Assembly (NCBI GenBank): GCA_032718475.1
Contig: JAUCBJ010002816.1
Span: forward strand, 1-53,347
Length of the DNA stretch: 53,347 bases
Reading direction: 5' to 3'
Origin: Nemertoderma westbladi
Lineage: Eukaryota; Animalia; Xenacoelomorpha
This document shows positions 2,127 through 34,840 of the stretch, piece after piece. Every line of letters begins with the position of its first letter. Position 1 is the first letter of the stretch. The position numbers and the translations under genes are program-made. The notes below the pieces were generated by a model. It ran no database searches and was not told where the DNA came from. It worked only from the letters and a program-made list of their open reading frames with translations.

Positions 2127-2744
2127 TGTGACGGGATCAAGGGATCCCGACCGGTTTGTTAGACTACGCGTCACCGTGTGGTATTGAAATAAAATGGAAA
2201 TGGCAGTTTGTTGTTATCGCTTTGATATTCGTTGGTTACCATCAATAAATGAATAACAGATAATAGCACAGTTGATAGATTGAATTGACAATAGCAGTAT
2301 ACCGGTAGGTAGGATATATAATATGTAATGACGGTGACGGTGAAAGATGTCACCTGTCTGCACTCAAACTAATGACTGGAATAACTGAACTGACACCTGA
2401 ATGCATTGACAATATATGTAATCATTTCTACATTACCGTGGCCTTTGTCCAGTGGATGCTTTCCCCCGCTCCTATTGGTTGATAACCTACTTCACGCCTC
2501 TCACCTCTGTGGGAGTGCTCCCCCCCCCCCCCCTGTTGGCCCTTGTTGGTTATTTTTCCCTCTCGAGGTGGTTTGACCTCAAACCTCCCTTCGTGTGGCT
2601 TTCCCCGTTATTGGGTGTGATACGAGATTGGTTGTTATCAATCTCGTATCTCCAATATTGCGGGTCTCGTATCTCCAATATTGCTGAAAAGGTGCCACTT
2701 CCCAACTTTGTGAGGGTAATGGAGCGGAATTTAATCCGCTCACA
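2127..2744 (-). repeat. 5' LTR of element 1 (618 bp)
   Basis: Inverted termini TGTGA...TCACA; sharp junction with the satellite at 2745; TATA-like sequence (~2411-2418) about 30 nt before TCAGTT initiator-like motifs (~2383-2393) on the minus strand. The partner LTR is outside the window. Confidence 0.7.
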
Positions 2745-5518
2745 ATGTATGAGAAACACTCGCTCGTCAACTGAAACACACAGTATCTAACGTATGAGAA
2801 ACACTCGCTTGTCCACTGAAACACACAGGCTATAATGAATGAGAAACACTCGCTCGTCAACTGAAACACACAGACTCTAATGTATGAGAAACACTCGCTC
2901 GTCAACTGAAACACACAGACTCTAACGTATGAGAAACACTCACTCGTCCACTGAAACACACAGACTATAATGAATGAGAAACACTCGCTCGGCAACTGAA
3001 ACACACACACTCTAATGTATGAGAAACACTCGCTCGTCCACTGAAACACACAGACTATAATGAATGAGAAACACTCGCTCGTCAACTGAAACACACAGAC
3101 TATAATGAATGAGAAACACTCGCTCATCAACTGAAACACACAGACTCTAACGTATGAGAAACACTCGCTCGTCCACTGAATCACACAGACTATAATGAAT
3201 GAGAAACACTCGCTCGTCAACTGAAACACACAGACTCTAATTTATGAGAAACACTAGCTCGTCAACTGAAACACACAAACTCTAACGTATGAGAAACACT
3301 CGCTCGTCCACTGAAACACACAGACTGTAATGAATGAGAAACACTCGCTCGTCAACTGAAACACACAGACTCTAATGTATGAGAAACACTCGCTCGTCAA
3401 CTGAAACACATAGACTCTATTGTATGAGAAACACTCGCTCGTCAACTGAAACACATAGACTCTAATGTATGAGAAACACTCGCTCGTCAACTGAAACACA
3501 CACACTCTAATGAATGAGAAACACTCGCTCGTCAACTGAAACACAGACTCTAACGTATGAGAAACACTCGTTCGTCAACTGAAACACACAGACTCTTATG
3601 AATGAGAAACACTCGCTCGTCAACTGAAACACACAGACTCTAATGTATGAGAAACACTCGCTCGTCAACTGAAACACACAGCCTCTAATGAATGAGAAAC
3701 ACTCGCTCGTCAACTGAAACACACAGACTATAATTTATGAGAAACACTCGCTCGTCAACTGAAACACAGAATCTAATGTATGAGAAACACTCGCTCGTCA
3801 ACTGAAACACAGACTCTAACGTATGAGAAACACTCGCTCGTCAACTGAAACACAGACTCTAATGTGTGAGAAACACTCGCTCGTCAACTGAAACACAGAC
3901 TCTAATGTATGAGAAACACTGGCTCGTCAATTGAAACACACAGACTCTAATGAATGAGAAACACTCGCTCGTCAACTGAAGCACACAGACTCTAATGAAT
4001 TAGAAACACTCGCTCGTCAACTGAAACACAGACTCTAACGTATGAGAAACACTCTCATACACTATAATTTATGAGAAACACTCGCTCGTCAACTGAAACA
4101 CAGAATCTAATGTATGAGAAACACTCGCTCGTCAACTGAAACACAGACTCTAACGTATGAGAAACACTCGCTCGTCAACTGAAACACAGACTCTAATGTA
4201 TGAGAAACACTCGCTCGTCAACTGAAACACAGACTCTAATGTATGAGAAACACTGGCTCGTCAATTGAAACACACAGACTCTAATGAATGAGAAACACTC
4301 GCTCGTCAACTGAAGCACACAGACTCTAATGAATGAGAAACACTCGCTCGTCAACTGAAACACAGACTCTAACGTATGAGAAACACTCGCTCGTCAACTG
4401 AAACACACAGTCTCTAATGTATGAGAAACACTCGCTCGTCAACTGAAACACACAGAAACACTCGCTCGTCAACTGAAACACAGACTCTAGTGTATGAGAA
4501 ATACTCGCTCGTCAACTGAAACACACAGTCTCTTATATATGAGAAACACTCGCTCATAAACTGAAACAAACAGACTCTAATGTATGAGAAACACTTGCTC
4601 GTCAACTGAAACACACAGACTCTAACGTATGAGAAAAACTCGCTCGTCAACTGAAACACAGACTCTAATGTATAAGAAACACCCGCTCGTCAACTGAAAC
4701 ACAGACTCTAACGTATGAGAAACACTCGATCGTTAACTGAAACACAGACTCTAATGTATGAGAAACACTCGCTCGTCAACTGAAATACATAGACTCTAAT
4801 GTATGAGAAACACTCACTCGTCAACTGAAACACACAGACTCTAATGTATGAGAAACACTCGCTCATCAACTGAAACACTGACTCTAACGTATGAAAAACC
4901 CTCGCTCGTCAACTGAAACACAGACTCTAATGTATGAGAAACACTCGCTCGTCAACTGAAACACAGACTCTAACGTATGAGAAACACTCGCTCGTAAACT
5001 GAAACACAGACTCTAATGTATGAGAAACACTCGCTCGTCAACTGAAACACACAGTCTCTAATGTATGAAAAACACTCGCTCGTCAACCGAAACACACAGA
5101 CTCTAACGTATGAGAAACACTCGCTCGTCAACTGAAAAACACAGACACATACAGACTGTAATGTATGAGAAACACTCGCTCGTCAACTGAAACACAGACT
5201 CTAACCTATGAGAAACACTCGCTCTTCAACTGAAACACACAGACTCTAATGTATGAGAAACACTCGCTCGTCAACTGAAACACAGACACTAACGTATGAG
5301 AAACACTCGCTCGTCAACTGAAACACACAGACTCTAATGTATGAGAAACACTCGCTCTTCAACTGAAACACAGACTCTAACGTATGAGAAAAACCCGCTC
5401 GTCAACTGAAACACAGTCTCTAATGTATGAGAAACACTCGCTCGTCAACTGAAACACAAAGACTCTATTGTATGAGAAACACTCGCTCGTCAACTGAAAG
5501 ACACAGTCTTTAATGTAT
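2745..5518. repeat. 45/43-bp tandem satellite, about 60 copies
   Basis: Unit GAGAAACACTCGCTCGTCAACTGAAACACACAGACTCTAATGTAT, with 43-bp variants lacking one CA. Confidence 0.97.
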
Positions 5519-5731
5519 AGACATGTAGATATTGATGATTAAATGGTCGTATTAGTTGAACTTTGTCGTTGCATCATGTTTCACGCCATATGCTTCTGCA
5601 AATTGCCGGATTATTTTTACTGGAAGATGTTCTTTTATGTTCTTAATAAGTTTCCGTTATCCGATTGAAATGATTATATATAATGTTTTTAATTGTTTTT
5701 ATCACAATATTATATTCACATTAAAACTAAC

Positions 5732-5971
5732 CTGGGCAAACGAGATTAGAAGTCTCTAATTGCATCTCCATACAATGTCCACACATTCGATGCCCACACG
5801 TGAGTATCTGTACAGGATAACGCAGTACATTGTCGCACTTGGGACAAATGTACTTGCTGTCAAGCGGACGATCGAAACACAAGTCGTACCCTTTGAATTT
5901 GTATCGTGGAAATAGGTAATCTATGGCTGGGGAAGTCGTTGTACCCCAAGGAGCCCACGATTGACTAGAAC
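5732..5971 (-). CDS. Internal coding exon encoding a TRAF-family (TRAF6-like) RING finger
   Basis: Polypyrimidine acceptor CTCCTTCTTATAG, donor G|GTTAGT, 240 nt, phase 1-1, no stops: ...KGYDLCFDRPLDSKYICPKCDNVLRYPVQILTCGHRMCGHCMEMQLETSNLVCP, matching the TRAF GYD..F..PL.SKY.CP.C...LR..VQ..CGHR.C..C pattern. Confidence 0.8.
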
Positions 5972-6063: not shown

Positions 6064-6609
6064 GTAATGTAATGAAATGTAATGTAATGTAATGTAATGT
6101 AACGTAACGTAACGTAACGTAACGCAACGCAACGCAACGCAACGTAACGTAACGTAACGTAACGTAACGTAACGTAACGTAAAGTAACGTAACGCAACGC
6201 AACGCAACGCAACGTAACGTAACGTAACGTAACGTAACGTAACGTAACGTAACGCAACGCAACGTAACGTAACGTATCGTAACGTAACGTAACGTAACGC
6301 AACGCAACGCAACGTAACGTGACGTAACGTAACGTAACGTAACGCAACGTAACGTAACGTAACGTAACGTAACGTAACGTAACGTAACGTAACGTAACGT
6401 AACGTAACGTAACGTAATGTAACGTAACGTAACGTAACGTAACGTAACGTAACGTAACGTAACGTAACGTAACGTAACGTAACGTAACGTAACGTAACGT
6501 AACGTAATGTAATGCAATGTAATGTAATGTAATGTAATGTAATGTAATGTAATGTAATGTAATGTAATGTAATGTAATGTAATGTAATGTAATGTAATGT
6601 AATGTAATG
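6064..6609. repeat. Compound pentanucleotide microsatellite (TAATG)n/(TAACG)n/(CAACG)n, left part
   Basis: Read directly; interrupted at 6610 by the LTR. Confidence 0.98.
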
Positions 6610-8741
6610 TGTTAAACGAACTACCCCGGCCTAACCAATAAAGACACAAAACTGCTCTATTTACTAGATGGGGCAATCAGGAGCGTATAATTACTAATGT
6701 ATGGTTTCAGGTACGGAAAACCACTACTTACCGTTGGATGGCGCTAATCTGCCGTCCGCTAATATATTTTACTTAATTTATACGACTCCTTCTAAATTCT
6801 CGTTCCTTTCTCTACCAATTACTCGATAGAGAGCTAACTGTTCGAATATATGAGCCACGCGGGAATAACCAAAAAATAAACCCGAATCGGCTCCCTAAGC
6901 TGACTTAAAACGAGTGTGAGAGATTTTACACTCAGAGTGTATTCTATAGCCTAATATTACTGTAAATTTGCGCTTACAACTACGTCCTTTCTAATCGCAT
7001 CTAATCGCAATACTGGGGTTCCCTAACGGAATGTGTGAATGTGAGAATATTTAAATAATCGAAAATCGGTACGGCAATTATTTCGGGACTCAAACTTATC
7101 TGCGGCTGGCTTTAGGCCAACAATTTACTGATGCGCGTTGCGTACTGTACTACGATGTGAATTTTGTCCACTAATTCAAATAACCGCCCAGCGTGAATAG
7201 TGTACGGTACTCTAAAATTATTACCTTAACTACCCTCCGCTATGCAGCGTACAAATTCTTAATTTTACTAATTAATTTCAGTCACAAATATGTAACGGCG
7301 TACTAAATACTAAGTATTCCAGAATGCGCAATTCTAAATTATTACGCAACGGGTCACACTAGCAACAGCCTAAGATACCGTATTATTTTCGACCTAATCA
7401 GAAATTAATTACAGTAAGCTAAGAAATAGAAATCAATCAAAGGGAAAGAGCGCCTATCCAAGCATTCGTGATTCATTAGGCACACTTTAGTAACGCACCA
7501 ATCAGCATAACAACAATCGCAATCTACAGTTTAGCTAGCAATTCACAACTCGCAATTCGCAACGTAAAGGACGCAGATCTCTCCCGGCTACGTCTAGGCT
7601 TCCTAACAAACCCAATTCCTGTCCCCCTAATACTACAAAAGAGAGACAAAACCTGGATCATCAGCCCCTAATTACTGAACCGGCGTACCTGACCCACTCT
7701 ACGCTGCAAACTTGCGCGCGCAATAGTAATCCCCCCAATGTTACTTGTCTTTGAATCCTCCGCACTCCCGTCGTCGCTAACCCCCCGATGCGCCCGCCGC
7801 GCTTACCGGTACCCTAGCCCTCCATCAGAATGAGTAGCTACCGTAGCGGCACATGCAAATCACAAAAGTCTGACAGTCTGAGAAATCCCGTAGGATTATT
7901 GTCGAAAGGAATCACATAGAACCATTTACTAAAGGGTAGAAATCATAGTTCCAACTTGTAATTAACAGCGATCATTGAGATTGATTGAGAAACACAAACA
8001 AGAATCAAACAGAAATTGCAAATTAGCGAATCATTGCAAGAAAATCAAAAGGGCAGTAATTTACACAGAAAAACTAAGCATCGAATAATAGTTGAAGGTG
8101 AGCTGTGTGGGGTGTGTGACTAAGCAGAATGTGAGATAGGTAACAATGGAAGTAGACCAATTTATAGGTGATTTGAGAAGGGTGATGCAATCGATCTCTC
8201 ATTGGCTCCCCAATCCGAGCTAACATCAGACCAACCTGGAAGCAGTTAGGCCAATAAGAGAGCCGGATTGTGGGCCTATAGCTCCCTGAAATCGTAAATT
8301 GCCACCATATAAGGTAATTTTCCCGATGCTTAATTTGGCGGTACTAATAATATCATGCACAAATATAAATTTAGCGCAATTATAGAGAAATTAAAACCAA
8401 TAGCTAGCCTCATCAAGGCTAATAACGGCAAGCCCAGATCCAGGGTCCAACAAGGACTTGCTACCCTGGAACTATCTACTTATATCCTATTAAAAAACTA
8501 CATAGGTAGGGCTACATACTATACAAAATGGATGAGTTCAAAATATATGGGCGTTTCAACTTCCTTATCTAAATATCATTGCGCGTTATGCCTTATCTAA
8601 ATAATTATACTGCATCACGGACTAATATATGATACTATATAATGGACTAATATATTATACTGTATAATGGACTAACATTATTATACTGTATAACGGACTA
8701 ATATATTACGTAATGTAGGTACAGCGCCATATACCGTAACA
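6610..8741 (-). repeat. 3' LTR (2132 bp)
   Basis: Near-identical to 22523-24431 (about 20 substitutions by eye); internal ~27-bp tandem repeats at ~8615-8710. Confidence 0.97.
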
Positions 8742-8752
8742 CCGCTCCAAGG
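8742..8752 (-). other. Weak polypurine-tract position (CCTTGGAGCGG|TGTTAC)
   Basis: Short G-rich stretch abutting the 3' LTR on the minus strand. Confidence 0.45.
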
Positions 8753-9244
8753 GAAATCATGCAATGTTTCCCTCCAATTGTAGAAGAGTGTAAGGCGATG
8801 TATACAAAATAAAATAACTCTCCTTCAAATAATCTAAATATCTTGATACTATACTATTTACAAATATTGCTATAGATATTGCATAATGAATTACATACAA
8901 ATTAAATTTACAAATATTATCTCTCTCAATGTTAACGATTATTACATACAAATTAAATTTACAAAAATACTGTTTCTCATTCGTTCTACATAATGATTAC
9001 TACATACAAATTAAATTTACAAAATACTTTCGAATTATAAAAATTTTGCTAGGGTAGGTGAAAGGAGTAAGCCAAACCCGCATGTTTGTCTCCCCAATCA
9101 CCTCCTTCGCCTCTCTCATAATATAAATCCAAATCAGTGCGACTAGTGTATATGAGTCAAGTCGGATATTTACAAATGCTACAATATACATCAGAGCGAC
9201 GATGATGTATATATCTAGAGTCTGTCGCCCCGTGATATGATGCA

Positions 9245-12200
9245 TTACTGACCCGCTCCTGGGTTCTTCGGGCTCGCTCCTCTCTTTCGCCCCCTACCCA
9301 GATACACCAATCGTCCTCCAGTTGACTCTGTTGACGTGGTCCATAAGGCGTCACTCCCCGGAACCGGCGACGATGTTCCCTGAGCTCTGACAGATTCCCG
9401 GCTAGTGCTTCGTCCTCGGCCTCGTCCCAATTGTCGTGCTCCTGTGGTCGCTTCCGCCAACTCTTCCTTTTGCAATTGCACGCGCGCCTTCTCCGACGCA
9501 CCCTGCGCCTTGCGCTACAATCGCTGAGCCTCTATAATCGAGTGATAGTGGTCGTCCTTGATTTGACGCTTGTCTTGGACCTCTCCTCCTGGTTCCTTCC
9601 GTGAGCCTTGAGCTCCAACGGTCGTCGTTGTGGGCGCTGCGGTTCGCTGTTCCTCGATCCTTTGAGCGGTCAATGACCCCACTGGTACGTGAGTCAACAG
9701 GAATTCGTTGCGGTATTGAATAGCCGCCATCCTCCAATCTCCTCGCGCGTGCACCACTTTCATAGTTTCCGAAAACAAACCCTTTGTAATACGGTCGCAA
9801 ATAGCAACAAAGTTCCAAGTGTACTTGTTGTCCATATTTAGTTGTCTGAAGTATTCCCGAACGACTATGACTCCAGTGTTCTGTGGAAGATCTTGAGCAG
9901 TTAGGATGAGCTCCTGATATTGTGGTAGCGACTGTAGATATGGTTCGTACGCAACATGTGACGGGTCTACCGCCCAAAGTCCATATCCCGCCTTAAATGG
10001 TAACCAACGCATCTGCGCTTGAATGTGGTAGTCAGCCACACTCTCCCACTTATCTAGCATCTCCCGAAGTAGGTTAGCGCTATGGTTCTGGAAGGAATCG
10101 TCTCGCAGTTGGCATCTCGCGCTACGATGTCCCTTTACTCCACAATATCCACATTGAGAAATGAAAACGGTGCACGTATGAAACGAATGGTCGGTCTCAT
10201 TGCACCAACGGCAGACCTTATGCGCCGCCTCCACTACAGTGTCGCACGATTTTTGATTGTGCCTTGTGCTGCCGCACAACTTGCACCTACGCGCTTGTGG
10301 AAACCAGGCCCTCTCGTATATGAGGTCTCCAATCGGTTTCGCACTTCCTTCTTTCCCAATGTCTAATACGATGTTGTCCTCTCCAGTTAAAGGTTGTCGA
10401 TCCGGAACAAAGTAAACATCCTCGCCCTTGTCCTCTATCTCCAATATTTCCTCCCGCGTTCGTTCAATAGCAAAATAAATAATAAAAATAAAATCGATAG
10501 CAAAATGTGCTATGAAGCCCATACCAGTCTTGGCAGAGTTGGGATACTCCCTATAAATTCCCATGTCTTGTGCCCATAGCAACAATAGCTTGGTGTCGAC
10601 AAACGGTCTCGGCAATCTATCTTCTAAATCAGTCATGGCGTTGAAGTCACTCTCCAAATCACTCTGGACTCCCGATCCCACCTTGACGTAATCTTGGCTA
10701 AGAATCGCCTCTCTAACCTTCTTGGGTAGCATCCTGGTGTCGATACGCTCCGCTCCGTGCATACCTCCTCGCCTGCATACCTCCAAAATCTGTTCCCTAG
10801 GATCCTTCCCCTTCCGATAATGTGTCGTGATTATGGGCTCCGGTCTCTCTCTATCTGCCCTTACGCGCATAAACACATGAGTCACACCATCGGTCGCGCG
10901 AATTTGAATGCACTTACTAGTCAAGCATTCCTGATGAGACCCTCCTTCATTGTCGTAAAACATCACTCTCCAATCTTGTAGTGATTCCTCCATTTTCCTC
11001 CACTGACGCTGAATCTCGTCGGATGGGGTCCACATGATCGATAGCCTTGTGGTCGTCATATCGGGTGTAAGATCCCTTTCTCCTCAGCCACACCTGGTCT
11101 ACCTCCTCGTCATCTGGGAATGTAACCACCGCGACCCATACCTTGATGTACTTTTCTAACCATCCAAATAACTTGCTCTCTTTTCCCGGAGCTCCAATCT
11201 TATCCAATGTGTCGTAGTCTGTGATCTGCATCGGGACATCACGCAAGAACTTCGCGCATAAAACGTCCCATAGACAGTCGACGTTCCAATGATCCGACAT
11301 CCTCACCATCGGCAAGAATCTAATCGCTTCTCGCGACTCCGGGTGATCTACCAATATCGCAGGTTCGCTACCGTCGGAATAATACACCGGTCGGGGTTGA
11401 GATACGGCCTGTGGAACAAATCCGGTCACTCTCCTCGTCTCCTCTTGATGTCTATCCGCGGTCTTATTATATTCCGCTATCCGCGCTTCGAATAATTGTT
11501 TCGCCTTCGCCGCTCGCTCCTCCTGCCGCAACGCGTCTATGTCGTCCTGATGCTCAGGCGTGAGTGTTCTCGCTCGATGAGGCAAAGTAATGTAGTCCAG
11601 GGACTCGAGAGCTCCAAACCCGCAGGTTTGGTACCCGAGTCCCGTGCCGCTTCGCGCCGCGCCTCTAGGTCCTTGTAGGCTCGGTACAGCGAAATGGCCG
11701 CTGCTGTCTCTATCAAACTGGGTGTCGAACAGGGTTTAATCTCCGTATACGGATCTAAAGTCGTAACGGTCGGCGTAATGGGTCTTGGAGGTCGCTTTCC
11801 GCTGAAGTCGATACTGATCATCGGGTTGCTCATTGGGTAACCTCCCTCGTTATATCTAAGGAACTGATGAGCTTGGCATCGCGTTAATATCGGTTCGGGA
11901 TGTTGCTCGTCCAATCGGTCGGGAATCGCCACGTCTTGTTTGTTCATGCATTCACCACATTTGTAGAACAACTTGTATACACTGAAGACCTTCGACGTCT
12001 CTTGATCCTCGCTGCGAGTCCTCCGATACAGATGCATTCCGTCGAACTGATCTCGGACTGCAGGTAGCGGCTCTTCGTGTCGTAAATACATATTCATGTG
12101 GTACAGCCGCGCAATCTCCTCATCCGGGTCTGCGCTAATGTTGCACACGTCTAACGCGAAATCGTAGGGATACCGAGTGCGATACTCTTTCCGCAAAACT

Positions 12201-12403
12201 TCCATATGGTCCCCCAACGCTCTCATTCTTTCCCTCCTTAATTCTTTATCATAAGCGGGTTTATATTTCCCATTTAGCTCCATCACCGACCTCCCGTGGT
12301 AGTAAACATTCGAATCCTTACATCCCGGTCGGGCAAATGGCAGCTCCGCCTCCTCTCTGGCAGTAAATCCTCTCCGCGGTTGCGCTCTAATTTCCTTCTC
12401 CAT
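9245..12403 (-). pseudogene. Accessory ORF3 of element 2: unknown N-terminal region, DEDDy (WRN/RNase D-like) 3'-5' exonuclease and three CCHC knuckles; two probable frameshifts and one in-frame TAG
   Basis: Overlapping ORFs 11537-12403, 10947-11585 and 9515-11059; after TAG (9515-9517) the frame stays open to 9245. Motifs FYDNEG (ExoI), LPKKVREAILSQDYVKVGSGVQSD (ExoII), FVDT, GMGFIA; knuckles CKLC-H-C, CRWC-H-C, CGYC-H-C. Confidence 0.8.
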
Positions 12404-13099
12404 TATGCGCCGCGTATATACATATATATATCCCAATAAGGTTCTGTTACGTAACTAATTACACTGTGGGTAAATCAGTTAGATGTCGCCGAAGGACAGA
12501 CCTCTTGAGCCCCCCCCCCCCCCCCCCCCCCCGCCTTACAGCAGTTCAGGTTCGACTCTCTAGATCCCGTCTCATTCCTAACTATCCTCTAACATATTCC
12601 CATGCATAGCGCAAAAACTTCGGAGATAAACTGGCCGTGACCAACTCACTTTTTGATGCCCAAACTACTCCCATTACTTGTACTAAACTACAGTAGTTAG
12701 AAAGGACCATAATCTCAATGCTCGACTATACCAAACCCACAGGTTTGATAATCGAACATCACACTTCACTGCAAACTACTAAGTGGGGTCCGTGTACGCC
12801 CTGATGCTACTAACCTTTAGCACCTTAGTTGTACTGCTGGCACCAATCTGTGGCAGTTGCTAAACTCAATTTACACTCCTACGTAATATAGCCGTCACCA
12901 TGGTTTCTAAATGCTATTTTCCTGGCTTCACGACTTTTCAAATTACTGTATATCTATAGACGAATTCTAAAACGTGTCTATACACAGCGTCTGGAATTGT
13001 CTTGTGTTCACTTCTAATTTTTAAAATTTTTTAATTTTCCAAAATTTTGAAAATAAAATTTTATTTGGGGAATGCATACGAAGTGAGTTGCGTCCAACA

Positions 13100-14458
13100 C
13101 TAATTTTTGTTAGAGGCAGGAGACAAATTATAATCTCCTGTCTCGATGCGTGTCTCCTCTAATAACACGATATCTTGGACCGGTCGGTCCAAGGTGTGTA
13201 AACCATTAGTTTTACACTTCTTTGGGTGCGGACACTTGCACCTAATTTTCACAGTGACTGTGCGCACTATGTTTTGCACGTCTGGGTGTGTGTGCAAGAT
13301 GACACCGGTTTCCCAATACTTTCTCTTGACAATCGGTTCGGTTATCAATACGTAATCTCCCCTTTGGAGACTCTGAACCGTTTTGTACCACTTTGTTCTG
13401 GTGGATATGGTGGGAAGATAGTATTCCCGCCAATATTCCCAGAATGTGTACGCTACGAATTGTGTCATTTTCCAGCTCTTACGACTATATAGGTCGGCAC
13501 TAATGGGATCTGATGTCGGCACAAGAAATGCTGGACTCTGCATTAGCAAATGATTCGGCGTTAATGCAACACCGTCTGGCAACATAGCTATCGGCCTCGA
13601 GTTTAGTGTATGCTCGATTTCGATGAAAGCTGTGACCAGTTCGTCATCGGTAAGTTGTATATTTACAGGCAACGTTTTGGCAATGGCCTGTTTTACAGAG
13701 CGAACTAAACGCTCCCAACTTCCTCCTCTCCAAGGACTTTCTGGAGTATTAAATCTCCATTCTATTCTTTGCGGCAAAAGTGCTGCAGAAATTTCCTTAT
13801 TCCGTGCCGCTTTGTGAGCCGCGTTTAACTCGCTGTTCCCTCCGACAAAGTTTGTACCCTTATCGGAGTAGAACGCCTTTACTAGTCCTCTTCTGGCCAT
13901 AAATCTCTTTAAGGCCAGGAGCAGAGATTTGGTCGACATGTCTGCCACACGCTCAATGTGTATGGCTCTACTAGCCATACATGTCAGTAGCAGGCCCCAT
14001 CGTTTGTGGGTCAGCCGTCCACTCTTTGCCTCAATCGGACCAAAACAATCCACCCCTGTGTTCGTAAAGGGTGGGTCATATGCCTGCACTCTCGCTTCCG
14101 GGAGTTCAGCCATCTCCTGTTCCAATACTCTGGCGTTCACCCTCTTGCAAACCAGACAGGCGTCATACATAGTGCCTACTGCCCTGCTTGGCTGCAATAG
14201 AATGAATCGCTGTCTCGCTGCCGACAAACAGTGTAACTTTCCCGCATGATGCAACCTCTTGTGTATATCCCATAGAATCGCTCTTTGCAATTCTATTGGG
14301 TGACTAGGGATTATCACTGGGAACCTAAACTGTGAGTTTATGTCGACAGTCTGGATTTTCGATCTATGACAAATTAAACCCTTATGGATTAATGGACTAA
14401 ATTTAATAGAGAACTGGTCGTTGAGCCGATAATAGATGGAATTCTTTTGGGAAGGCAC
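13100..14458 (-). pseudogene. pol: BEL/Pao integrase, separated from RT/RH by frameshifts (linker fragment 14503-14736)
   Basis: HKRLHH...CLVC zinc finger; DDE triad in VDCFGP, SDKGTNF, GGSWERLV; LNSRP, LTPNHLL and FW..W..EY BEL motifs. Confidence 0.93.
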
Positions 14459-14714
14459 ACATTTGATAATGCTTCAAATGCTTTAATTCCGCTTGATCAA
14501 TTTCATCCTCTGTCAGAGGTTGTTTCGCTCTGAATTCGCTCACTATTAGTGCTCATTTGTTCTCCCAAATGTTTCGAATGTTTTATACAAAGGTACGAAA
14601 TGTATCGGCTTAACCACGCAGTTCTTTTACAAATTGTCAGCCAAGAGGCAGACGAATTTAGTAATTTGTCATAAATACTACATGGCTCTAATGCCAGCGA
14701 CGGTTGTCCGCTAA

Positions 14715-17573
14715 TTAATGGAAGTTTCGAATCCAAACCAAAGGCTCCATTTTGTCGGTCATTTTCATTCCATCACTTACCAATTGTGACTCTGGTTTAG
14801 TCTGTAAGGGTGGTTTTATGTCATAACTTACCCTTCCGGACCTAGTACTCACGTAAGTCTGTTGGTCTGACAGGTCTCTAGGCCGCTCCAATGACTCTTC
14901 AGGCCGCTCCAATGACTCTTCAGGCCGCTCCAATGACTTGAGTTTGGCTTTAGACTTTGACTTAGAGACTTTCTCCACCTTGACTTCTGCATCTTCAGGC
15001 ATCGGATTGGTCACTATCTTTAGTCGCTCTGGCCAATGTTCCTGTGTCCTCGTTAGAAAATCAGGCCCATGCAACCAAAACTCCTGCGACTCTTCCTGAC
15101 AGAATTCCGCCGGCATTGCACCTCTCGAAGTTATGTCGGCCGGGTTCAACACTCCCGGACAATGTCTCCATTGTTCCTTCGTCGAAAAGTCAACGATCTG
15201 AGCGCCTCTGTTGGCCACAAATGTCTTTAGTGCAATATTGTCGGCCGCAATGTATACTAACACTAAGGATGCGTCCGTCCAATAGAATAAGGTCAATGTC
15301 GTGTCTAACTCCTCTGTTATCTGCCTACTTACCTCGACTGAAACTACAGCCGCCTGTAACTCTGCACGAGGGACAGTCATGTATTTGACCGGCATTGTCT
15401 TTGATCTAGAAGTCACAAAAGCCGTCTCAAATTTATCCTGACTTACCTCTCGGCGAAGGTAGGCTACCATACCAAAGCCGGTGTCACTTGCGTCACTAAA
15501 TAAATGGAGTTCGAGATCAGCTGGGAATACCAGCTGATTCGGAAAGTAGGAGCGGGGTACATCTATGTTTTTCAATAGATGCAACTCGGCTTCCCACTCT
15601 CTCCACTGCTTTGTATGTATAGGAGATATTGGTTCGTCCCACTCTAGGTCGGACAACCAAATTTTCCTCATGCACGCTCGTGCCTGTAATATTACTGGAC
15701 TGATAAAGTTCATCGGGTCAAATAGTCTACTTAATGTCGATAAGCAAATTCTCTTAGTCAAAACTTTATCTGGGCTACTGGGCTCAAATCTAACTCTTAC
15801 CTGGAATTTATCCGTGTTCGGATTCCAAGCGAGTCCCAGTACTCGCGCCATGGGGATGGGTTCTACCCCCAATTCTATGTCTCCGCTCCCGCGATCCTTT
15901 ACCGGGAACGACTCTAATAGGGCCTCCGAGTTCGTAGTGAACTTGGTCAGAGGAAATCCCCCTGTAGCCAAGCACTCTTGCAGGCCGTGAGCCACTTCTA
16001 TGGCTTGTTCTGCCGCGTCCTTGGACACCAATCCGTCGTCCATATAGAAGTTTCTCAAGATGGACTCGATTACTTCTACTGGATACTTACCAATCTGGGC
16101 TGTTGCCGTTTTCTTTAGAACAAACAGCGTGCCGTTTGGACTATCGCGGGCGCCAAATATCCTAACGTACATTTGGTATGTAACCACTGGGCCGGATATG
16201 TCTTCATTCTCGTACCAGAGAAATCGAAGGCTATCCTGGTCTGCCTTACAGGCTCTTACCTGGTGGAACATCGCCTCGATGTCACAAGTAAACACGAATC
16301 GCCGCTGTCTAAAACGCAACAGTATTCCTATCAAATAATTATTCAGGTTGGGACCATCCATCAACTCTGAATTCAGGGACATACCTCTATAGACTGCTGC
16401 GCAGTCGTTGACTACTCGGACTTTGTCAGGCTTGTCAGGGTGAGTCACATAGTGGTGTGGGAGGTAATAAGTCTGGTCTGTCACTAAGACAGGGTCCTCT
16501 ACCTTCCCAGCAAATCCCTTGGCGAAATAGTTGTTGATCTGGGCGCAATACTTCTCCCTAATGTCCGGATTCTTTAGCAACCGAGCCCTTACTCCGTTCA
16601 ATCTTTTTAAGGCTAAGCTGTAGTTGTTCTCCAACTTAGGAGGTTGTCGACGCCACAACATTCCAACTTCAAAATGTCCAGTCGGTAGCAAACGTATGGT
16701 GTCTTCCATCATCTCCAGCGACCGTTTCTCATCAGTGGACATGGCTAGGTCATATCCACCGGGTTCCATTGCGTCCCTATCCAGCCATTCGACGGTTCTA
16801 GCTCCTGTCTCGAGGTCCTGGCGTATCAATTCCTTCTGTAGCTCCTCCTCACTGTATTGGAAAATGTCGAGGTCGCGATATTTAGCCACCTGACCCTCCA
16901 CTATGTCGGTATAAGTCAAAACGTTACTCAGATAAGTAGCGTGGGCCGCTGAACCAGACCCACGGGTCTGATAACAGTAGTCCTTGGGTTCACTATCTGT
17001 CCGGTCGTTGTGAAGTGGTTCCGACAACCTAACATTATCGGGAATCAACTCCTCGTCTGACTCGCTAAAGTCACTATAGTGGTCAATACAGGTTCTCCTA
17101 AACTCGTCTATGTCTGGTAGTTCTACTAACGGTGGTTGAGTTATAGGCTGTAATTCGTCGTATCTGTCTATTGGCTTGTCGCCACCTGTAAACTCATAAG
17201 ACATGGGTACTCTTGTATACCAACCTAGTATAGTCCTATGGGCATGTGGTCCATTGACATGCGGCTCAGCTGGTCTCGTTTCCCATATTTGGTGTGCGAT
17301 CAGCTGTTCTGCACCAATCAACATAGAAACATTCCTATAACCTACCTGGTGTCTCGGTATCCTGAGCTTGTCAAAATACTCCTGTGCTATGGGACTCATC
17401 GGCGGCACCTTACCTAACTGCCTGCCGAATCCCTTCATAGCTAGACACTTAAATCCGTCCAATGGCAAAGGTCTTCGTTCTTGTCGAGTGTGTTGGTCTC
17501 TCGGAAGTAGGGAGTCTAGTTCTACCGAAATTCTGTGTCCCTTGAGGTCTCCTACTCCATGCATAGACTTCAA
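14715..17573 (-). pseudogene. pol: BEL/Pao protease C-terminal part, reverse transcriptase and RNase H
   Basis: YLPHH, KVRVVNDCAA, SLNSELMDGP, DIEAMFHQV, FGARDSP, NFYMDD; RNase H FSDAS, PRAELQAA, WTDAS, NPADITSRG; 21-bp triple repeat at ~14880-14938. Confidence 0.95.
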
Positions 17574-17597
17574 CTCTATTTGGATTTCCTCGGCGTC

Positions 17598-20500
17598 CTA
17601 GAAGCTAGAAACGGCTCTCGCCACTTCCTCGTCGATATACGATAATGTGGACGCAGTGTCCAACATCACATATATTCGCTTAGATCCCTTATCGCCAGTA
17701 AGTTTCACCGGAATCACGCTAAATATTTCCGACGTGGCCGATGATAAATACGTCCGCGCGCTGGTCGATGAACTATCCGCGGTGAAACCTTGGCAGGTCA
17801 CCTCTCTTGCGCTCAACTCGCCATCCTCGTCCGACGAACCTGGTTGATAACCATCGTCCTGAATGCCGGTATACGTATTTCTTCTTATCGATACGGGTTC
17901 TTCGCTCCCCTTCCTGTGAGGATTTCGCTGTAAGTAACGGTCCGTTGGGGTGTGAAAATCCGCATGTAGCAACTTGTGATGTAGTCTGCCGCATTCCATA
18001 CATCCGTCCTTACTGTTCGGGCACTGCCGCCGTACATGACCTGGCGCAAGACATGCCCAACAGGTGTCCAACGTCCGCACTTGAACTCTTCTCTGTTCCG
18101 AATTTAATTCTTTGAACCGTCTGCAACTATCTAACTTATGGTCGTCAGATCTTACCTCCTTTAGTAAACAGTATTGGCAACCTACAAATCCATCCGGCAA
18201 CTCCTGTTGCTTTAACCTAGGTCTATCTAACCGCTCACCTGACCATACTCGCGAGTCTGATCTAAAGGCTGGGGTAATCGAATTATATCTGTCTACTGAG
18301 TTAAATGTCACAGTGGTCCTGTCATCGTCAAAACTTACCATAGACTTACCGGTAACAGGTTTAGACTCTCTCATATTCTCCTCTGAGAAGTTTGATTTCA
18401 TCTCTGCTACTGCGTCTGTGGCTATCATGTCATGAATATGCTGAAGTGTCAACACCTCACCTTGACCATCCAACTTATTCTCTAATTTGCGCCATTTCTG
18501 TCGGTAACGCATGTTTAAACGTCTTATTACGCTCTTTAAATCTTCGGCGTGATCACCATGATGAGGTAGATTCACCATCCTCAAGATGTCCAATGCGTTC
18601 GAAATAGCGTTCGCTAAGTTCAACAGCTCTAACGGAGTTGTAATCCTTCTGCCCTTACCCAAGTCTTCCACTATCGACTGTGCCATCTTGGTTTTATTCC
18701 CGTAGATGTCGCTAAGCGTCTTCATTGCCAACTCAAATGCCCTTTCATTGCCGACGAAGTTATCAGCAATGGCTCTAGGTTCTCGATGGAGCATCTGAAG
18801 CAAATAGTTGAACTTCTCGTTGGGAGTAAAGGTGCTGTTGGTTAGCTGCTCGTCGACATAGGTTTTAAACGTCCTCCAATGCTTATGGTTGCCCATAAAC
18901 TTCTGGGGTTGTTGCGTCGGCAGTCCTTGCCTAGCAGCAAACTTACCTATGTCCCTAAGGATTGCGTCGTTCCGGGTTAACAAATGGTTTAGTTCCGCAG
19001 GGTTGTTAAGTCTGGTCCTTTCCCGGGGATTGAGACTTACCTGCTCCGCGTCCGTCCTTCTTTCCTTATAGTTTCGGGACTTCTGACGTCTCATGTCTTC
19101 CTCTTCATCACTTGATTCGGTGTCATTCCTTAGCGCTTGCGATGGTTTGCGCACCGAGGCCCTGACCCAGGCGTCCTGAATAAACTTTTCGGCTGAATTT
19201 TCGAAATCGGGATTATGGATATTTGGGACAGGCGTCCTTACCAGAGGTCTATGTGGTATAGTCTCCTCCGATATGCGTACTCGTTGACTAGGTTGGACTT
19301 TATCTAACTCAGGCCTGCTAGGATTAGAATTACTTCTTACCTGGGCTGCTTCCTTTAACCGTAGGTTGCTAAGCATGTCCGTTATAGGTTGGATGTGCGG
19401 CGATATAGCTTGCGCTAAACTAGCACTTAACTCATCCCTCGTAATAAATTCCTGGCTAGGGTTCTGTTGTATAGTCGGCTCTATCTGAGTAATCCGCTGT
19501 CTCTCATATGATCCCTCTTCCGGTTTAACCCGGAAGTTCTCCGTCGAACTGGGTCGGCGCTCCGTCCGCGTATTCCAAACCCGCGGGTTCGGTTCGCCCA
19601 ATACTCGGCCCGTCAGAGTTTCTCCTCTAAACTCTTCGTTGTCTCGTTCGGTATGTAGTGGTGCGGTGCGCTGATACGCTGGATTCTGCGCGATAGGTGA
19701 AGCACTAATACCAATTGGCGTGCGATATGTAGAGAACGGTTTAGCGATCCGTGTACTCGTAATAGCTGGACCGTGTATAGGAATTCTGATCGTCGTCGAC
19801 TCGCGTATGGTCGGAGTTCTCGCTTCCTGTTCGGCCTTCTGCAGTGCGAACAGTTCTCGCAACTCAGTCCCTACACTTGCCCCACATTCTTCGATCATTC
19901 GCATCCCCTTCTCGGCGATTTCATTCGCCTTCCTGGTCCGTTCCTCGCTCTCTAGGTTTAATCTCGCACTTTCCAACTGCGCCAGTTTACGTTCTTCTTC
20001 TTCCCTCGCTCGTCTCGCTGCGCTCTCTTCTTCCACACGCGCCTTTTCTTCATACAACGCTTGTCGCTCTTTCTCGATCTCGAGTTCGCGTTCCTTGCAT
20101 TCGCGTTCAAGTTCGAGTTCGCGTTCCTTCTGTTCGCGTTCGAGCTGGAGTTCGCGTTCTTTCTGTTCGTGTTCAAGTTGGAGTTCGCGTTCCTTCTGTT
20201 CGCGTTCCGCTCGCTCACGCTTACCCTATCTTCCAACTCGCGCAACTTTGCGTCTAACTTACGTGTTCGCTCCCTTTCCCGCTCGGCTTCCTTCCGTGCT
20301 TCCGATGCACGCAAAACTTCCGCCTGTTGTTCGTCCAATCGGCGTCTTCTCTCCTCCGCCGAATTGTGAGAAACAAGGGATCTAGCACATATAACTTTAC
20401 CTCGCGCGTGACTAACCTGGGAATTGCCACTGCCTCTAGATGCGTCGTCGGGTGGAGTTAACGTTCTCAGTTGGATATTCTCCGTCGTCGGTAGCATCTG

Positions 20501-21367
20501 ACCCGGTACCACCACTCCACTCTGCATCAGCCAGCTGGTAACTTCCCGCTGATAACGGCGCTCCTCCTTATCTTGCGTCTCTTCTCGCTCCACTAAATCT
20601 CTCGACTCTGCGTCACTCACCTGAGTCGCCTGCGCTTGTGATGCCCATAGCAGCCAGTTCTCCGTCCTAACTCGTCGGAATCGCTCCGATAACGTGCGGT
20701 GCTCCAACAAGGCTGCTAAAACCCTGTCGTAAATCCTCGTCGCCACGTCGTTCGACTGAGACTCTACTGCCTTCTTCGCTAGGACTGCAAGCTCCTCCGT
20801 CTGGTTGAATAACGCTGAGTTGTATCCTCTTCTAATCTCTACTAACCCTTCCCTTCCGATGTTCGCTGAGTCGGCTAACATCTTCCTTACCTTGTCCGCC
20901 GTCCGGGTTATATGTCCGGCATGCGCGCGAAGTTTTTTCTTTATCGCGATATCAAGTTCTCTCTCGCTTACCTGACTCACACTTGGTGGACTTGAAGGAT
21001 TATTTCTGGAACTATGGGTACTCCTTTTAGCCGCTGGGACCACGGCACTTACCATACCCACAGGTCTGGAAACCGGGCTCCGGGCTCTCGCTTCTGCTAC
21101 ACTACCCTCCCTATCACTCACCTCTGGTTGGGTTGCTGTACAATCCTTCCTTACAGTAGCGGTAGGGGATCCTAATACTATTACCTGAGGTGGTTCTTCT
21201 TCCTCACTAGTTACTGTCTCGTCCTCCTGTTCACTTACGTCAGCATCACTCGCTGCGTCATCATAGTCGGCATTGTCGTCAACAGTAATATTAACGCTAT
21301 CGTCAGTCGGCGGTTCTGCCGCCGTCTCATAGCTGTCCTCTAGTGCCTCCTTCTCTGAGGCACTCAT
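17598..21367 (-). pseudogene. gag: BEL/Pao gag and aspartic protease active site; frameshifts at ~20225 and ~17610
   Basis: EREQKERELQL coiled-coil repeats; KFMGNHKHWRTF capsid-like region; three Cys/His knuckles ending CMECGRLHHKLLH; protease motif VMLDTAS. Confidence 0.93.
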
Positions 21368-22522
21368 AGTCTAAATAATATTTGCCTTCCGGCAAAAATA
21401 TATCTCGCAAAAGTTCGAGATATATATATATATAATTTAATCGAAAATACGATCAAATTATTTGTCAAATATCCAATTGTCCAAAATGTCAAAATAAATT
21501 CGCAATGCAATATTGTGAATTTAATGGTGTATAGTTATAGCAAATACCGGTATAATATTTAAACAAAATATTATTATATAGTTATTATATAGTATTTAAA
21601 TACCGGTATGACACAAATAATTTTTTGAATCTAATACAAAATATTCAAAATAAACTTGCCACCCGAATATTTCTAATTTTACATAGATAACTCTAATCCA
21701 CGCAATTTTAATTTCAAATATTATATGTATCCACTAGCGCGTGGCTACATCTTCGGGTTGCGACTCTCTCTCTCTCTCTAACTCGAGCGATTCAAAAACC
21801 CATGGTCGGCTAAACCTAACTATCCTAACTAATAAATTGAGTTCACCTTCGCAGTTAAACAACCGATAATTTTTTACTGCTTCCACAAACACAATGGTGC
21901 CAACATAACAACTAACCTTGTTTGCTGTGAGATTCCACGTCCGCGTCCAAAGTTTCAGTCCTTTCGCTGATTGCAAACCGAACCCGCAGACCCACACGAA
22001 CCCCAAACTCAGAAGCTCCGTCTTGCCATGTATCTCCAGATGGTATAAAATAACTAAGCGGTTATCCAACATACCGGTACAAAACTCTAGATTTTATTAC
22101 AAAATAATTTTGACCAAAACTGAATTCTCACAAACCTAGCTAAAAATTTCAAAAAACTTACTAATTACGGCCTGCCCTAACGGCCTAAGGAACCGCTGTA
22201 TTTGTGATTAGTAAACGCACTACCGTATATCCACTGTACGCAATACAGTAAGTAAAACAGTACACCAACCTAACAGCCTAATGAATACTGTGTGCGGTAC
22301 AGCAAAACAAATGTATTTTCTACTTGTATGCAGTAACAGCAATCAGCCTAATGTACTACTGTACTATTGTACGCGACCAGTGAATACAGTAATCTAACTT
22401 AACAGCCTAAAGAATACACTTGATGTTCTACCGTACGCAGTACAGTGCCTAATACAGTAATCTAATTAGTACTTTCTGACTTTACTGTACGCAGTACAGC
22501 AAAACACAAAAACGTCCTTTAC

Positions 22523-24431
22523 TGTTAAACGAACTACCCCAGCCTAACCAATAAAGACACAAAACTGCTCTATTTACTAGACGGGGCAATCAGGAGCGTA
22601 TTACTACTAATGTATGGTTTCAGGTACGGAAAACCACTACTTACCGTTGGATGGCGCTAATCTGCCGTCCGCTAATATATTTTACTAAATTTCTACGACT
22701 CCTTCTAAATTCTCGTTCCTTTCTCTACCAATTACTCGATAGAGAGCTAACTGTTCGAATATATGAGCCACGCGGGAATAACCAAAACAATAAACCCGAA
22801 TCGGCTCCCTAAGCTGACTTAAAACGAGTGTGAGAGATTTTACACTCAGAGTGTATTCTATAGCCTAATATTACTGTAAATTTGCGCTTACAACTACGTC
22901 CTTTCTAATCGCATCTAATCGCAATACTGGGGTTCCCTAACGGAATGTGTGAATGTGAGAATATTTAAATAATCGAAAATCGGTACGGCAATTATTTCGG
23001 GACTCAAACTTATCTGCGGCTGGCTTTAGGCCAACAATTTACTGATGCGCGTTGCGTACTGTACTACGATGTGAATTTTGTCCGCTAATTCAAATAACCG
23101 CCCAGCGTGAATAGTGTACGGTACTCTAAAATTATTACCTTAACTACCCTCCGCTATGCAGCGTACAAATTCTTAATTTTACTAATTAATTTCAGTCACA
23201 AATATGTAACGGCGTACTAATTACTAAGTATTCCAGAATGCGCAATTCTAAATTATTACGCAACGGGTCACACTAGCAACAGCCTAAGATACCGTATTAT
23301 TTTCGACCTAATCAGAAATTAATTACAGTAAGCTAAGAAATAGAAATCAATCAAAGGGAAAGAGCGCCTATCCAAGCATTCGTGATTAATTAGGCAAACT
23401 TTAGTAACGCACCAATCAGCATAACATAACAACAATCGCAATCTACAGTTTAGCTAGCAATTCACAACTCGCAATTCGCAACGTAAAGGACGCAGATCTC
23501 TCCCGGCTACGTCTAGGCTTCCTAACTAACCCAATTCCTGTCCCCCTAATACTACAAAATAGAGACAAAACCTGGATCATCAGCCCCTAATTACTAAACC
23601 GGCGTACCTGACCCACTCTACGCTGCAAACTTGCGCGCGCAATAGTAATCCCCCCAATGTTACTTGTCTTTGAATCCTCCGCACTCCCGTCGTCGCTAAC
23701 CCCCCGATGCGCCCGCCGCACTTACCAGTACCCTAGCCCTCCATCAGAATGAGTAGCTACCATAGCGGCACATGCAAATCACAAAAGTCTGACAGTCTGA
23801 GAAATCCCGTAGGATTATTGTCGAAAGGAATCACATAGAACAATTTACTAAAGGGTAGAAATCATAGTTCCAACTTGTAATTAACAGCGATCATTGAGAT
23901 TGATTGAGAAACACAAACAAGAATCAAACAGAAATTGCAAATTAGCGAATCATTGCAAGAAAATCAAAAGGGCAGTAATTTACACAGAAAAACTAAGCAT
24001 CGAATAATAGTTGAAGGTGAGCTGTGTGGGGTGTGTGACTAAGCAGAATGTGAGATAGGTAACAATGGAAGTAGGCCAATTTATAGGTGATAGCTAGCCT
24101 CATCAAGGCTAATAACGGCAAGCCCAGATCCAGGGTCCAACAAGGACTTGCTACCCTGGAACTATCTACTTATATCCTATTACAAAACTACATAGGTAGG
24201 GCTACATACTATACAAAATGGATGAGTTCAAAATATATGGGCATTTCAACTTCCTTATCTAAATATCATTGCGCGTTATGCCTTATCTAAATAATTATAC
24301 TGCATCACGGACTAATATATGATACTATATAATGGACTAATATATTATAATGTATAATGGACTAACATTATTATACTGTATAACGGACTAATATATTACG
24401 TAATGTAGGTACAGCGCCATATACCGTAACA
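22523..24431 (-). repeat. 5' LTR (1909 bp) with a ~229-bp deletion relative to the 3' LTR
   Basis: Alignment by eye; the segment matching 8172-8400 is missing at ~24090. Confidence 0.97.
24037..24087 (-). promoter_or_regulatory. Putative LTR core promoter (TATAAA plus initiator-like CACATTC/TTAGTC)
   Basis: CCTATAAATT on the minus strand at ~24078-24087, with initiator-like motifs ~30-45 nt downstream; same site at ~8160 in the 3' LTR. Confidence 0.45.
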
Positions 24432-24890
24432 TAATGTAATGTAATGTAATGTAATGTAATGTAATGTAATGTAATGTAATGTAATGTAATGTAATGTAAT
24501 GTAATGTAATGTAATGTAATATAATGTAATGTAATGTAATGTAATGTAATGTAATGTAATGTAATGTATTGTAATGTAATGTAATGTAATGTAATGTAAT
24601 GTAATGTAATGTAATGTAATGTAATGTAATGTAATGTAATGTAATGTAATGTAATGTAATGTAATGTAATGTAATGTAATGTAATGTAATGTAATGTAAT
24701 GTAATGTAATGTAATGTAATGTAATGTAATGTAATGTAATGTAATGTAATGTAATGTAATGTAATGTAATGTAATGTAATGTAATGTAATGTAATGTAAT
24801 GTAATGTAATGTAATGTAATGTAATGTAATGTAATGTAATGTAATGTAATGTAATGCAATGTAATGTAATGTAATGTAATGTAATGTAAT
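24432..24890. repeat. (TAATG)n microsatellite, right part
   Basis: Almost pure array, read directly. Confidence 0.98.
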
Positions 24891-33200: not shown

Positions 33201-34840
33201 TCTTACAATTGTTGTTCAACCTTAGTATCTCCACTCATATTTCTTACCATTGTTGTTCAACCTTAGTATCTCCACTCATATTTCTTACCATTGTTGTTCA
33301 ACCTTAGTATCTCCACTCATATTTCTTACCATTGCTGTTCAACCTTAGTATCTCCACTCATATTTCTTACCATTGTTGTTCAACCTTAGTATCTCCACTC
33401 ATATTTCTTACCATTGCTGTTCAACCTTAGTATCTCCACTCATATTTCTTACCATTGTTGTTCAACCTTAGTATCAGCCACTCATATATCTTACCATTGT
33501 TGTTCAACCTTAGTATCTCCACTCATATTTCTTACAATTGTTGTTCAACCTTAGTATCTCCACTCATATTTCTTACCATTGTTGTTCAACCTTAGTATCT
33601 CCACTCATATTTCTTACCATTGTTGTTCAACCTTAGTATCTCCACTCATATTTCTTACCATTGTTGTTCAACCTTAGTATCAGCCACTCATATATCTTAC
33701 CATTGTTGTTCAACCTTAGTATCTCCACTCATATTTCTTACCATTGCTGTTCAACCTTAGTATCTCCACCACTCATATTTCTTACCATTGTTGTTCAACC
33801 TTAGTATCAGCCACTCATATATCTTACCATTGTTGTTCAACCTTAGTATCTCCACTCATATATCTTACCATTGTTGTTAAACCTTAGTATCTCCACTCAT
33901 ATTTCTTACCATTGTTGTTCAACCTTAGTATCTCCACTCATATTTCTTACCATTGTTGTTCAACCTTAGTATATCCACACATATTTCTTACCATTGTTGT
34001 TAAACCTTAGTATCTCCACTCATATTTCTTACCATTTTTGTTAAACCTTGGTATCTCCACTCATATTTCATACCATTTTTGTTAAACCTTAGTATCTCCA
34101 CTCATATTTCTTACCATTGTTGTTCAACCTTACTATCTCCACTCATATTTCTTACCATTGTTGTTAAACCTTAGTATCTCCACTCATATTTCTTACCATT
34201 TTTGTTAAACCTTAGTATCTCCACTCATATTTCTTACAATTGTTGTTCAACCTTAGTATCTCCACTCATATTTCTTACCATTGTTGTTCAACCTTAGTAT
34301 CTCCACTCATATTTCTTACCATTGTTGTTAAACCTTAGTATCTCCACTCATATTTCATACCATTTTTGTTAAACCTTAGTATCTCCACTCATATTTCTTA
34401 CCATTTTTGTTAAACCTTAGTATCTCCACTCATATTTCTTACCATTGTTGTTAAACCTTAGTATATCTCCACTCATATTTCTTACCAATTTTGTTAAACC
34501 TTAGTATCTCCACTCATATTTCTTACCATTGTTGTTAAAACTTAGTATCTCCACTCATATTTCTTACCATTGTTGTTAAACCTTAGCATCTCCACTCATA
34601 TTTCTTACCATTTTTGTTAAACCTTAGTATCGCCACTCATATTTCTTACCATTGTTGTTCAACCTTAGTATCTCCACTCATATTTCTTACCATTGTTGTT
34701 CAACCTTAGTATCTCCACTCATATTTCTTACCATTGTTGTTAAACCTTAGTATCTCCACTCATATTTCTTACCATTTTTGTTAAACCTTAGTATCTCCAC
34801 TCATATTTCTTACCGTTGTGGATCAACTTTAGTATCTCCT
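30214..34840. repeat. 41-bp tandem satellite, about 110 copies, with higher-order structure
   Basis: Unit TCATATTTCTTACCATTGTTGTTCAACCTTAGTATCTCCAC with recurring +1, +3 and +5 variants. Confidence 0.97.

Follow-up and report, generated by a model that had tools for sequence, protein, structure and literature searches.

How does a retrotransposon that lacks the TGG start of a binding site for a transfer RNA (tRNA) begin its own reverse transcription? The question is posed by an element with long terminal repeats (LTRs) in Nemertoderma westbladi (Xenacoelomorpha), on contig JAUCBJ010002816.1 of assembly GCA_032718475.1. This stretch of 53,347 nucleotides (nt) was analysed at its full length and is called the window below. 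The element, an LTR retrotransposon of the BEL/Pao type, spans positions 24431-6610 on the minus strand, over 17,822 nt. [quoted passage not shown] Directly behind the 5' LTR of the window element we sought the TGG start of a tRNA-type site and found none; the 18-nt tRNA-Arg/tRNA-Gly site of the ICTV profile is thus absent from it.

The original prediction for this locus held that a 10-nt stretch of the 3' LTR could fold back onto the primer site, and that an exonuclease encoded by the element could trim the RNA behind it. Our analysis points in another direction. The window element probably primes itself in the manner of Tf1, from the copy of this stretch that lies in the 5' LTR, which its own RNase H would cut. 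Comparison with related elements also leads us to favour a broader view, namely that tRNA priming has been abandoned in a wide marine BEL/Pao lineage, and that the host spliceosome builds the primer by removing an LTR intron only in the cap-proximal copy, which would leave the 5' end as the sole place of priming. What is new here likely lies in BEL/Pao priming that needs no tRNA and is built by splicing, and not in the exonuclease hypothesis. Exact predictions follow as to the cut site, the splice junction and the use of the 5' versus the 3' copy.

The primer site and its complement in the LTR

The putative primer-binding site, GTAAAGGACG (22513-22522, minus strand), adjoins the end of the 5' LTR (22523) and is devoid of TGG. 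The sense strand of the element being the minus strand, the 10 nt at 22522-22513 are complementary to 23492-23483 in the 5' LTR and to 7573-7564 in the 3' LTR. The latter copy had been reported at 7564-7573, and we confirm it, together with the one at 23483-23492. In dinucleotide shuffles, a match of at least 10 nt arose in 2 of 3000 cases at offset 0, and in 14 of 3000 at offsets 0-5. The predicted self-primer of the 5' LTR (23483-23493, minus strand) would form 10 Watson-Crick pairs and one G-U pair with 22512-22522; as in the relatives described below, the primer site starts with GT and the primer ends with AC. A longer, splice-built primer was sought in the window's own LTR and was not found (best 4 nt); the window family is likely an intron-less form. 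Rfam and ARAGORN scans of the window gave no matches. None of the 40 substitutions listed from contigs of the family falls in the primer or the primer site, from which we conclude nothing.

In Tf1, the RNA's initial 11 bases anneal to the primer site, and cleavage by RNase H falls between bases 11 and 12 (PMC7175516, in excerpt); the primer sits in a three-helix 'pretzel' (bioRxiv 2022.12.06.519325; PMC4600332; PMC5341516; all in excerpt). Self-priming is reported for Tf1/sushi, Tcn1 and TAR elements (PMC6317226, in excerpt). As far as these excerpts go, the window element resembles Tf1, Tf2 and Tj1, the Tf1/sushi chromoviruses and the plant elements Tcn1 and TAR in that it has no tRNA site, has RNase H on board, and carries about 11 nt of LTR sequence complementary to a site adjoining the 5' LTR. 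As in the Tf1 pretzel (bioRxiv 2022.12.06.519325), the 3' flank of its primer would pair with the LTR end. However, its proteins are those of BEL/Pao and not of Ty3/gypsy or copia elements: it would work alike, but it is not a member of the group. Its primer lies 960 nt from the LTR end, and it may differ from that of Tf1 in not being the first nucleotides of the RNA. Further differences from Tf1 are that the flanking helices are not conserved in its relatives, that a second partial site competes in the window element, and that the primer is split by an intron in many relatives. A literature search for self-priming in BEL/Pao gave no report, including in PMC5443660, PMC3601003 and PMC8220671 (in excerpt); subscription journals, Repbase entries and supplements lay outside this search.

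In the mechanism that we propose, the RNA would start at or upstream of the 10-mer in the 5' LTR, and this copy would fold onto the primer site. The RNase H of the element, in which the acidic motifs are present, would likely cut behind the AC end and leave a paired primer of about 11 nt, from which reverse transcriptase would copy the U5 and R regions back as far as the cut. Strand transfer would then use the part of R that runs from the cut to the poly(A) site, and the sequence upstream of the cut would be restored from the 3' LTR.

A second predicted helix joins the 12 nt behind the 10-mer (23471-23482, minus strand) to the U5 end of the LTR (22524-22537, minus strand), with the terminal A of CA bulged. 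Among 908 control 16-mers, 5 are equally good, and pairing on the 5' side of the primer is ordinary (184 of the 908 controls as good). A tentative third helix, between 23057-23068 (minus strand) and the leader at 22491-22502, appears weak; none of 150 shuffles and 4 of 150 random 25-mers matched it.

The second helix bears on the alternative in which the 3' LTR copy (7564-7573, minus strand) pairs with the primer site and the exonuclease trims the tail, leaving a 3'-OH at the LTR edge. The 10-mer is indeed present in the 3' LTR and the geometry is possible. However, the tail that had been called unpaired is predicted to be paired. With the 12 nt that follow the 10-mer bound to the LTR end, the trimming enzyme would stall too early, and the complementary DNA (cDNA) would presumably start about 14 nt inside the LTR, with loss of the terminal CA. 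Moreover, folding predicts that a second partial site (at 6981-6990) locally masks the 3' copy, with p ~0.99, provided that the RNA extends to 6981. The same alternative had drawn on the lack of a canonical AATAAA. We likewise found neither AATAAA nor ATTAAA in sense orientation in the window LTR, but as a sign of unusual 3' ends this does not hold: 451 of 1000 shuffles are also devoid of AATAAA, and 134 of 1000 of both hexamers. The absence of AATAAA is at chance level and was discarded as evidence. Two variant hexamers, AGTAAA (22578) and AATAGA (22574), lie upstream of a GU-rich stretch.

Self-complementarity in related elements

Relatives were sought with a search profile made from the window pol aligned with 26 of 120 listed homologues. 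We retained the best 80 of 532 BEL loci on metagenome contigs (numbered with the letter L below), which fall into 62 families. A long-range direct repeat is found in 33 loci; 13 of them have flank behind the 3' copy, and in these 13 the LTR end was fixed independently of complementarity.

Twelve of these 13 relatives with readable LTR ends match their own LTR over 10-15 nt, the sequences differing by family. The complement is contiguous in five relatives (10-12 nt). In six others, the unspliced sequence matches over 6-9 nt, and a complement of 11-15 nt arises only once a GT-AG intron that contains a pyrimidine tract (76-186 nt) is removed; L050 joins this split group after correction of its LTR end, such that 7 of the 12 matches need intron removal. 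Controls for 11 matching relatives gave 0 or 1 in 500 each. In a cross-swap of 14 elements (the 13 relatives plus the window element), 13 of the 14 sites matched their own LTR, against 1 of 182 pairings with foreign LTRs; TGG follows the 5' LTR in none of the 14. Such family-specific complementarity strongly supports self-priming at the sequence level, and in this respect the original prediction is supported. It points to priming free of tRNA in a third superfamily of LTR elements. Alternatively, the primer could be a fragment of a host tRNA or another small RNA, the LTR match being a by-product: tRNA priming is what the ICTV profile states for the family (PMC8742986), and half-tRNA primers are reported in copia elements (PMC6317226, in excerpt). 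However, the 13 different primer-site sequences, each matching its own LTR and almost never that of another element, render this very unlikely.

The geometry of the helix was described on 20 families, of which 11 are relatives retained by scoring and nine were located by eye, a set that carries a selection bias. The helix is 10-15 nt long, and exactly 11 nt in 11 of the 20; the primer ends with AC in 15 and with AT in 4, and AATAAA or ATTAAA is found downstream of it in 15 of 20. Split primers take 4-9 nt from the donor side and 4-7 nt from the acceptor side (L008, L010, L013, L018, L024, L026, L036, L040, L050/L051, L055 and others). A blind search scored 34 loci; 11 were skipped for short upstream sequence and the remainder had no long gag-pol frame. 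A 12-nt match that it gave in L037 was discarded because of a poor acceptor.

How could a primer split by an intron be used and transmitted? Splicing is aided by the cap. In the intron-split relatives, splicing near the cap would assemble the primer in no other copy than the 5' one; progeny would inherit the intron through the 3' copy, which stays unspliced, and contiguous families would arise when that copy is occasionally spliced. If so, the persistence of an intron in the LTR would be explained, because only the cap-proximal copy is spliced, and the start of reverse transcription would be tied to host RNA processing. In a quick-method tree the split and contiguous labels are unclustered (5 changes, with 232 of 500 shuffles equally low). 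This scatter fits repeated intron loss or gain, the direction of which is not given by the tree.

Three minor observations were made in this survey. The LTRs of L010, L036 and L040 contain an extra GTAAG donor upstream of the donor that builds the primer, and alternative splicing from it could yield a primer-less messenger RNA (mRNA). In L059, the LTR end of which is not fixed, TGG follows CA near the gag start (~240-260), and this locus may have a tRNA-type site. BEL pol was also sought in viral contigs, and none was found.

Several results weigh against self-priming from the 5' copy as we propose it. The pol of the relatives is 34-43% identical to that of the window element, which forms a long branch. 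A match to the own LTR was sought and not found in L074, nor in L002, the nearest locus to the window element. The blind search reached at least 11 nt in just 15 of the 34 scored loci, the discarded L037 match among them, and missed five cases found by eye. The transcription start is a further difficulty. In favour of the proposal, L008 has a TATA box 31 nt upstream of the primer start, but this position is found in just 1 of 20 relatives; elsewhere TATA lies 122-167 nt upstream in three and at -15 in one, and it was not found in 15 of 20. Contigs of the window family show neither a transcript start or end nor a GT-AG joint. The primer may therefore be internal, unlike that of Tf1. The same may apply to the window element, in which the TATAAA nearest to the primer is at 24085, some 590 nt upstream, with a strong splice donor (23725) and an acceptor (23551) in between. 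As to the fold, the third helix is disrupted by indels in many copies of the family, and we rejected the three-helix pretzel as a conserved feature, the second helix not being good in the 11 relatives tested (best 18 of 300). Finally, in a single-sequence fold of the 1.1-kb leader the primer pairs with a second site (p 0.97) rather than with the primer site (p 0.02), and forcing the latter pairing costs 3.2 of 304 kcal/mol.

This second, partial primer site has the same sense as the primer site and occurs in the 5' LTR (22894-22904, minus strand) and in the 3' LTR (6980-6990, minus strand). Its copies, announced at 6982 and 22896, are present; the alternative pairing proposed for them is borderline, an 11-pair helix being reached by 7 of 300 Markov controls, and yet it is the one preferred by the fold, as a competing or decoy pairing. 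This preference would suit a helix that is real but regulatory (in translation, in packaging, or as a switch with the second site), with priming achieved otherwise. We consider this unlikely. The helix begins 0-4 nt from the LTR end in the relatives, L070 apart, where minus-strand synthesis must start, and no other primer site is present.

A predicted exonuclease-knuckle protein encoded behind pol

The enzyme to which trimming had been attributed is encoded by an accessory open reading frame (ORF), ORF3 (9515-12403, minus strand), of about 960 codons in three frames, the N-terminal part of which is of no recognised kind. A predicted splice acceptor with a CTAAC branch site lies upstream (12464-12485, minus strand), and ORF3 is likely made from a spliced subgenomic mRNA. 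It comprises an RNase D/EXD2-like exonuclease domain (10499-10960, minus strand) followed by three CCHC-type zinc knuckles (10127-10285, minus strand). Of the DEDDy motifs, Exo I (D-x-E) and the Exo II D are present in the window copy; the Exo III Y...D block is gone after ~10500, where other copies of the family continue with different letters. Among six homologues, recovered by a HMMER scan of 1.84 billion representatives, the Y...D is found in four and the D in five. Because the ORF is split over three frames and the Exo III block is missing, the sequence of the window copy encodes no intact exonuclease.

A profile made from the six homologues alone recovers the window ORF among 304 window ORFs (E 1.7e-36). 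The family profile matches the EXD2 core (PDB 6k17, E 7e-8), and the knuckles of Lin28 and of Trypanosoma brucei RNase D (PDB 7c42/7c45). Other searches were negative: Pfam gave no domain on the three ORF3 frames, PDB searches with the two N-terminal frames gave no match, word searches gave no homologue beyond the six, and no DNA context was found for homologues P0001, P0002 and P0004. An AlphaFold model of the exonuclease (predicted local distance difference test score, pLDDT, 38.9) was too poor for structure search and was left unused. From these matches, ORF3 proteins probably form a family of RNA-binding 3'-5' exonucleases, and an intact member would be predicted to bind and trim RNA 3' ends. 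The original prediction of such an enzyme is thus supported for the family and not for the copy in the window. In homologue P0001 the nuclease core is degenerate and the knuckle module occurs twice. It is common for copies of the family to miss 328 nt of the N-terminal part of ORF3 (window 11928-12257), and others miss 942 nt (window 10137-11080) and with them the entire exonuclease domain.

DEDDy exonuclease ORFs are known as cargo of the bdelloid elements Juno, Vesta and Athena/Terminons (PMC5408684, PMC6431247; both in excerpt), where the accessory RNase D-like ORF likewise lies behind pol; the likeness, within these excerpts, is one of layout. In contrast to the rotifer ORF3, the window version is carried by a BEL/Pao element and is embedded in a longer ORF with three CCHC knuckles. 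The exonuclease-then-CCHC layout is also that of T. brucei RNase D (PMC7797062, in excerpt), with a profile match via the knuckles only. Unlike EXD2 and the trypanosome enzyme, the window protein is the cargo of a mobile element, in a copy without Exo III.

Is this protein involved in priming? Membership of ORF3 in an exonuclease-plus-knuckle family speaks for trimming of the 3' copy, and 3'-end processing has been suggested as a possible role for such ORFs (PMC5408684, in excerpt). However, in none of the 12 self-complementary relatives does an additional ORF lie between gag-pol and the 3' LTR, and the exonuclease-knuckle profile gave no match in the 80 loci, which contradicts the proposed link between the ORF and self-complementarity; self-complementary relatives devoid of the ORF had been named in the original prediction itself as refuting it. 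Family copies without the whole exonuclease domain exist as well. In addition, L008 appears to have about 5 nt between the likely start and the intron, which would be too short an overlap for strand transfer if priming were from the 3' copy. With the masking of the 3' copy and the pairing that extends 12 nt past the LTR edge, these results largely refute 3'-copy trimming for the lineage, and we regard it as highly improbable for the window element. A hybrid may also be envisaged, in which priming uses the 5' copy and an imprecise downstream cut is trimmed back by the exonuclease, as a local add-on to an older mechanism. In its favour, the window family sits on a long branch, its LTRs are unusually long and it carries an extra ORF; and T. 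brucei RND, which has an RNase D core with a C-terminal knuckle array, trims the tails of RNA (PMC7797062, in excerpt). However, the second helix would stop trimming short of the primer end, and the AC end is common to relatives without the enzyme, so that the hybrid seems quite unlikely.

We therefore return to self-priming from the 5' copy by RNase H cleavage, to which the exonuclease gene is likely an unrelated passenger. Taken out of the priming story, exonuclease-knuckle cargo on a BEL element becomes a separate question. Our best guess, a tentative one, is a role in counter-defence against small-RNA or tailing pathways. A fuller scenario is more doubtful still. In it, on top of spliceosome-built priming in the lineage, this giant family would have lost the intron and put an RNA decoy in the place of that lock, namely the second site, by which the 3' copy would be masked and use of the 5' copy gated, and the nuclease-knuckle protein would serve counter-defence.

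Anatomy of the element and other features of the window

The 5' LTR (22523-24431, minus strand, 1909 nt, TG...CA ends) and the 3' LTR (6610-8741, minus strand, 2132 nt) differ by 21 substitutions over 1903 aligned positions, and the 3' LTR contains 229 nt (~8171-8399) that are absent in the 5' LTR. An antisense AATAAA is found on the plus strand at 6637 and 22550, 27 nt inside the LTR end. Motifs of the TACTG/CAGTA type recur in the leader (22512-21371, minus strand, 1.15 kb), and a long hairpin is predicted in it (22507-22423). The leader is followed by gag, with coiled coil, DUF1759 and CCHC, and the start of the protease (17598-21370, minus strand, in two frames), reverse transcriptase (YMDD at 16046) and a Pao-type RNase H with acidic motifs at 15500, 15368, 15281 and 15146 (14715-17597, minus strand), integrase with an H2C2 finger and DUF5641 (13100-14473, minus strand) and, behind ORF3, a weak polypurine tract (8742-8752, minus strand) 5' of the 3' LTR. 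The gag and pol frames are both disrupted in the window copy. The element is flanked by TAATG at 6605-6609 (plus strand) and at 24432-24436; the surrounding sequence is a (TAATG)n satellite, which leaves the target duplication ambiguous. In contigs from three DNA sequencing runs, each of the element's 30 bins is covered and variants are numerous, and the element is therefore a multi-copy family.

Pfam recognised DUF1759, zf-CCHC, Peptidase_A17 (3.7e-39), H2C2 and DUF5641 on the window ORFs, in the order protease, reverse transcriptase, RNase H, integrase, and PF05380 is carried by every one of the 120 pol homologues listed. The element shares with Belpaoviridae this order behind Gag, the domains DUF1759, Peptidase_A17 and DUF5641, and TG...CA LTRs. 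However, with 17.8 kb and LTRs of 1.9-2.1 kb it exceeds the 4.2-10 kb and 0.2-1.2 kb given for that family (PMC8742986), it has no 18-nt tRNA site, and its third ORF encodes the exonuclease-knuckle protein and not an env-like one. Judged by its predicted proteins it is of BEL/Pao type, and it is not a typical Semotivirus.

Elsewhere in the window, gag-like frames of another LTR element ('Element 1') lie at 2095-213 on the minus strand; no second LTR of it was found in the window (best self-match 9 nt), nor an exonuclease match. A likely DNA transposon, with 69-nt inverted repeats around ORFs with DUF7869, occupies 35638-39160. The segment 26410-28095 is non-coding and resembles a miniature inverted-repeat transposable element; its inverted arms consist of short repeats of G/C runs, and a 36-nt tandem lies inside. 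Satellites extend over 2744-5521 (43-45-nt units) and 30214-34839 (41-nt units). Two methyltransferase ORFs are uninterrupted, at 41143-42186 (plus strand) and 47839-48750 (minus strand); one is an O-methyltransferase and the other is presumably UbiG/COQ3-like. An exon-like stretch at ~5730-5900 (minus strand) has a RING-type cysteine pattern, which we take to be TRAF-like.

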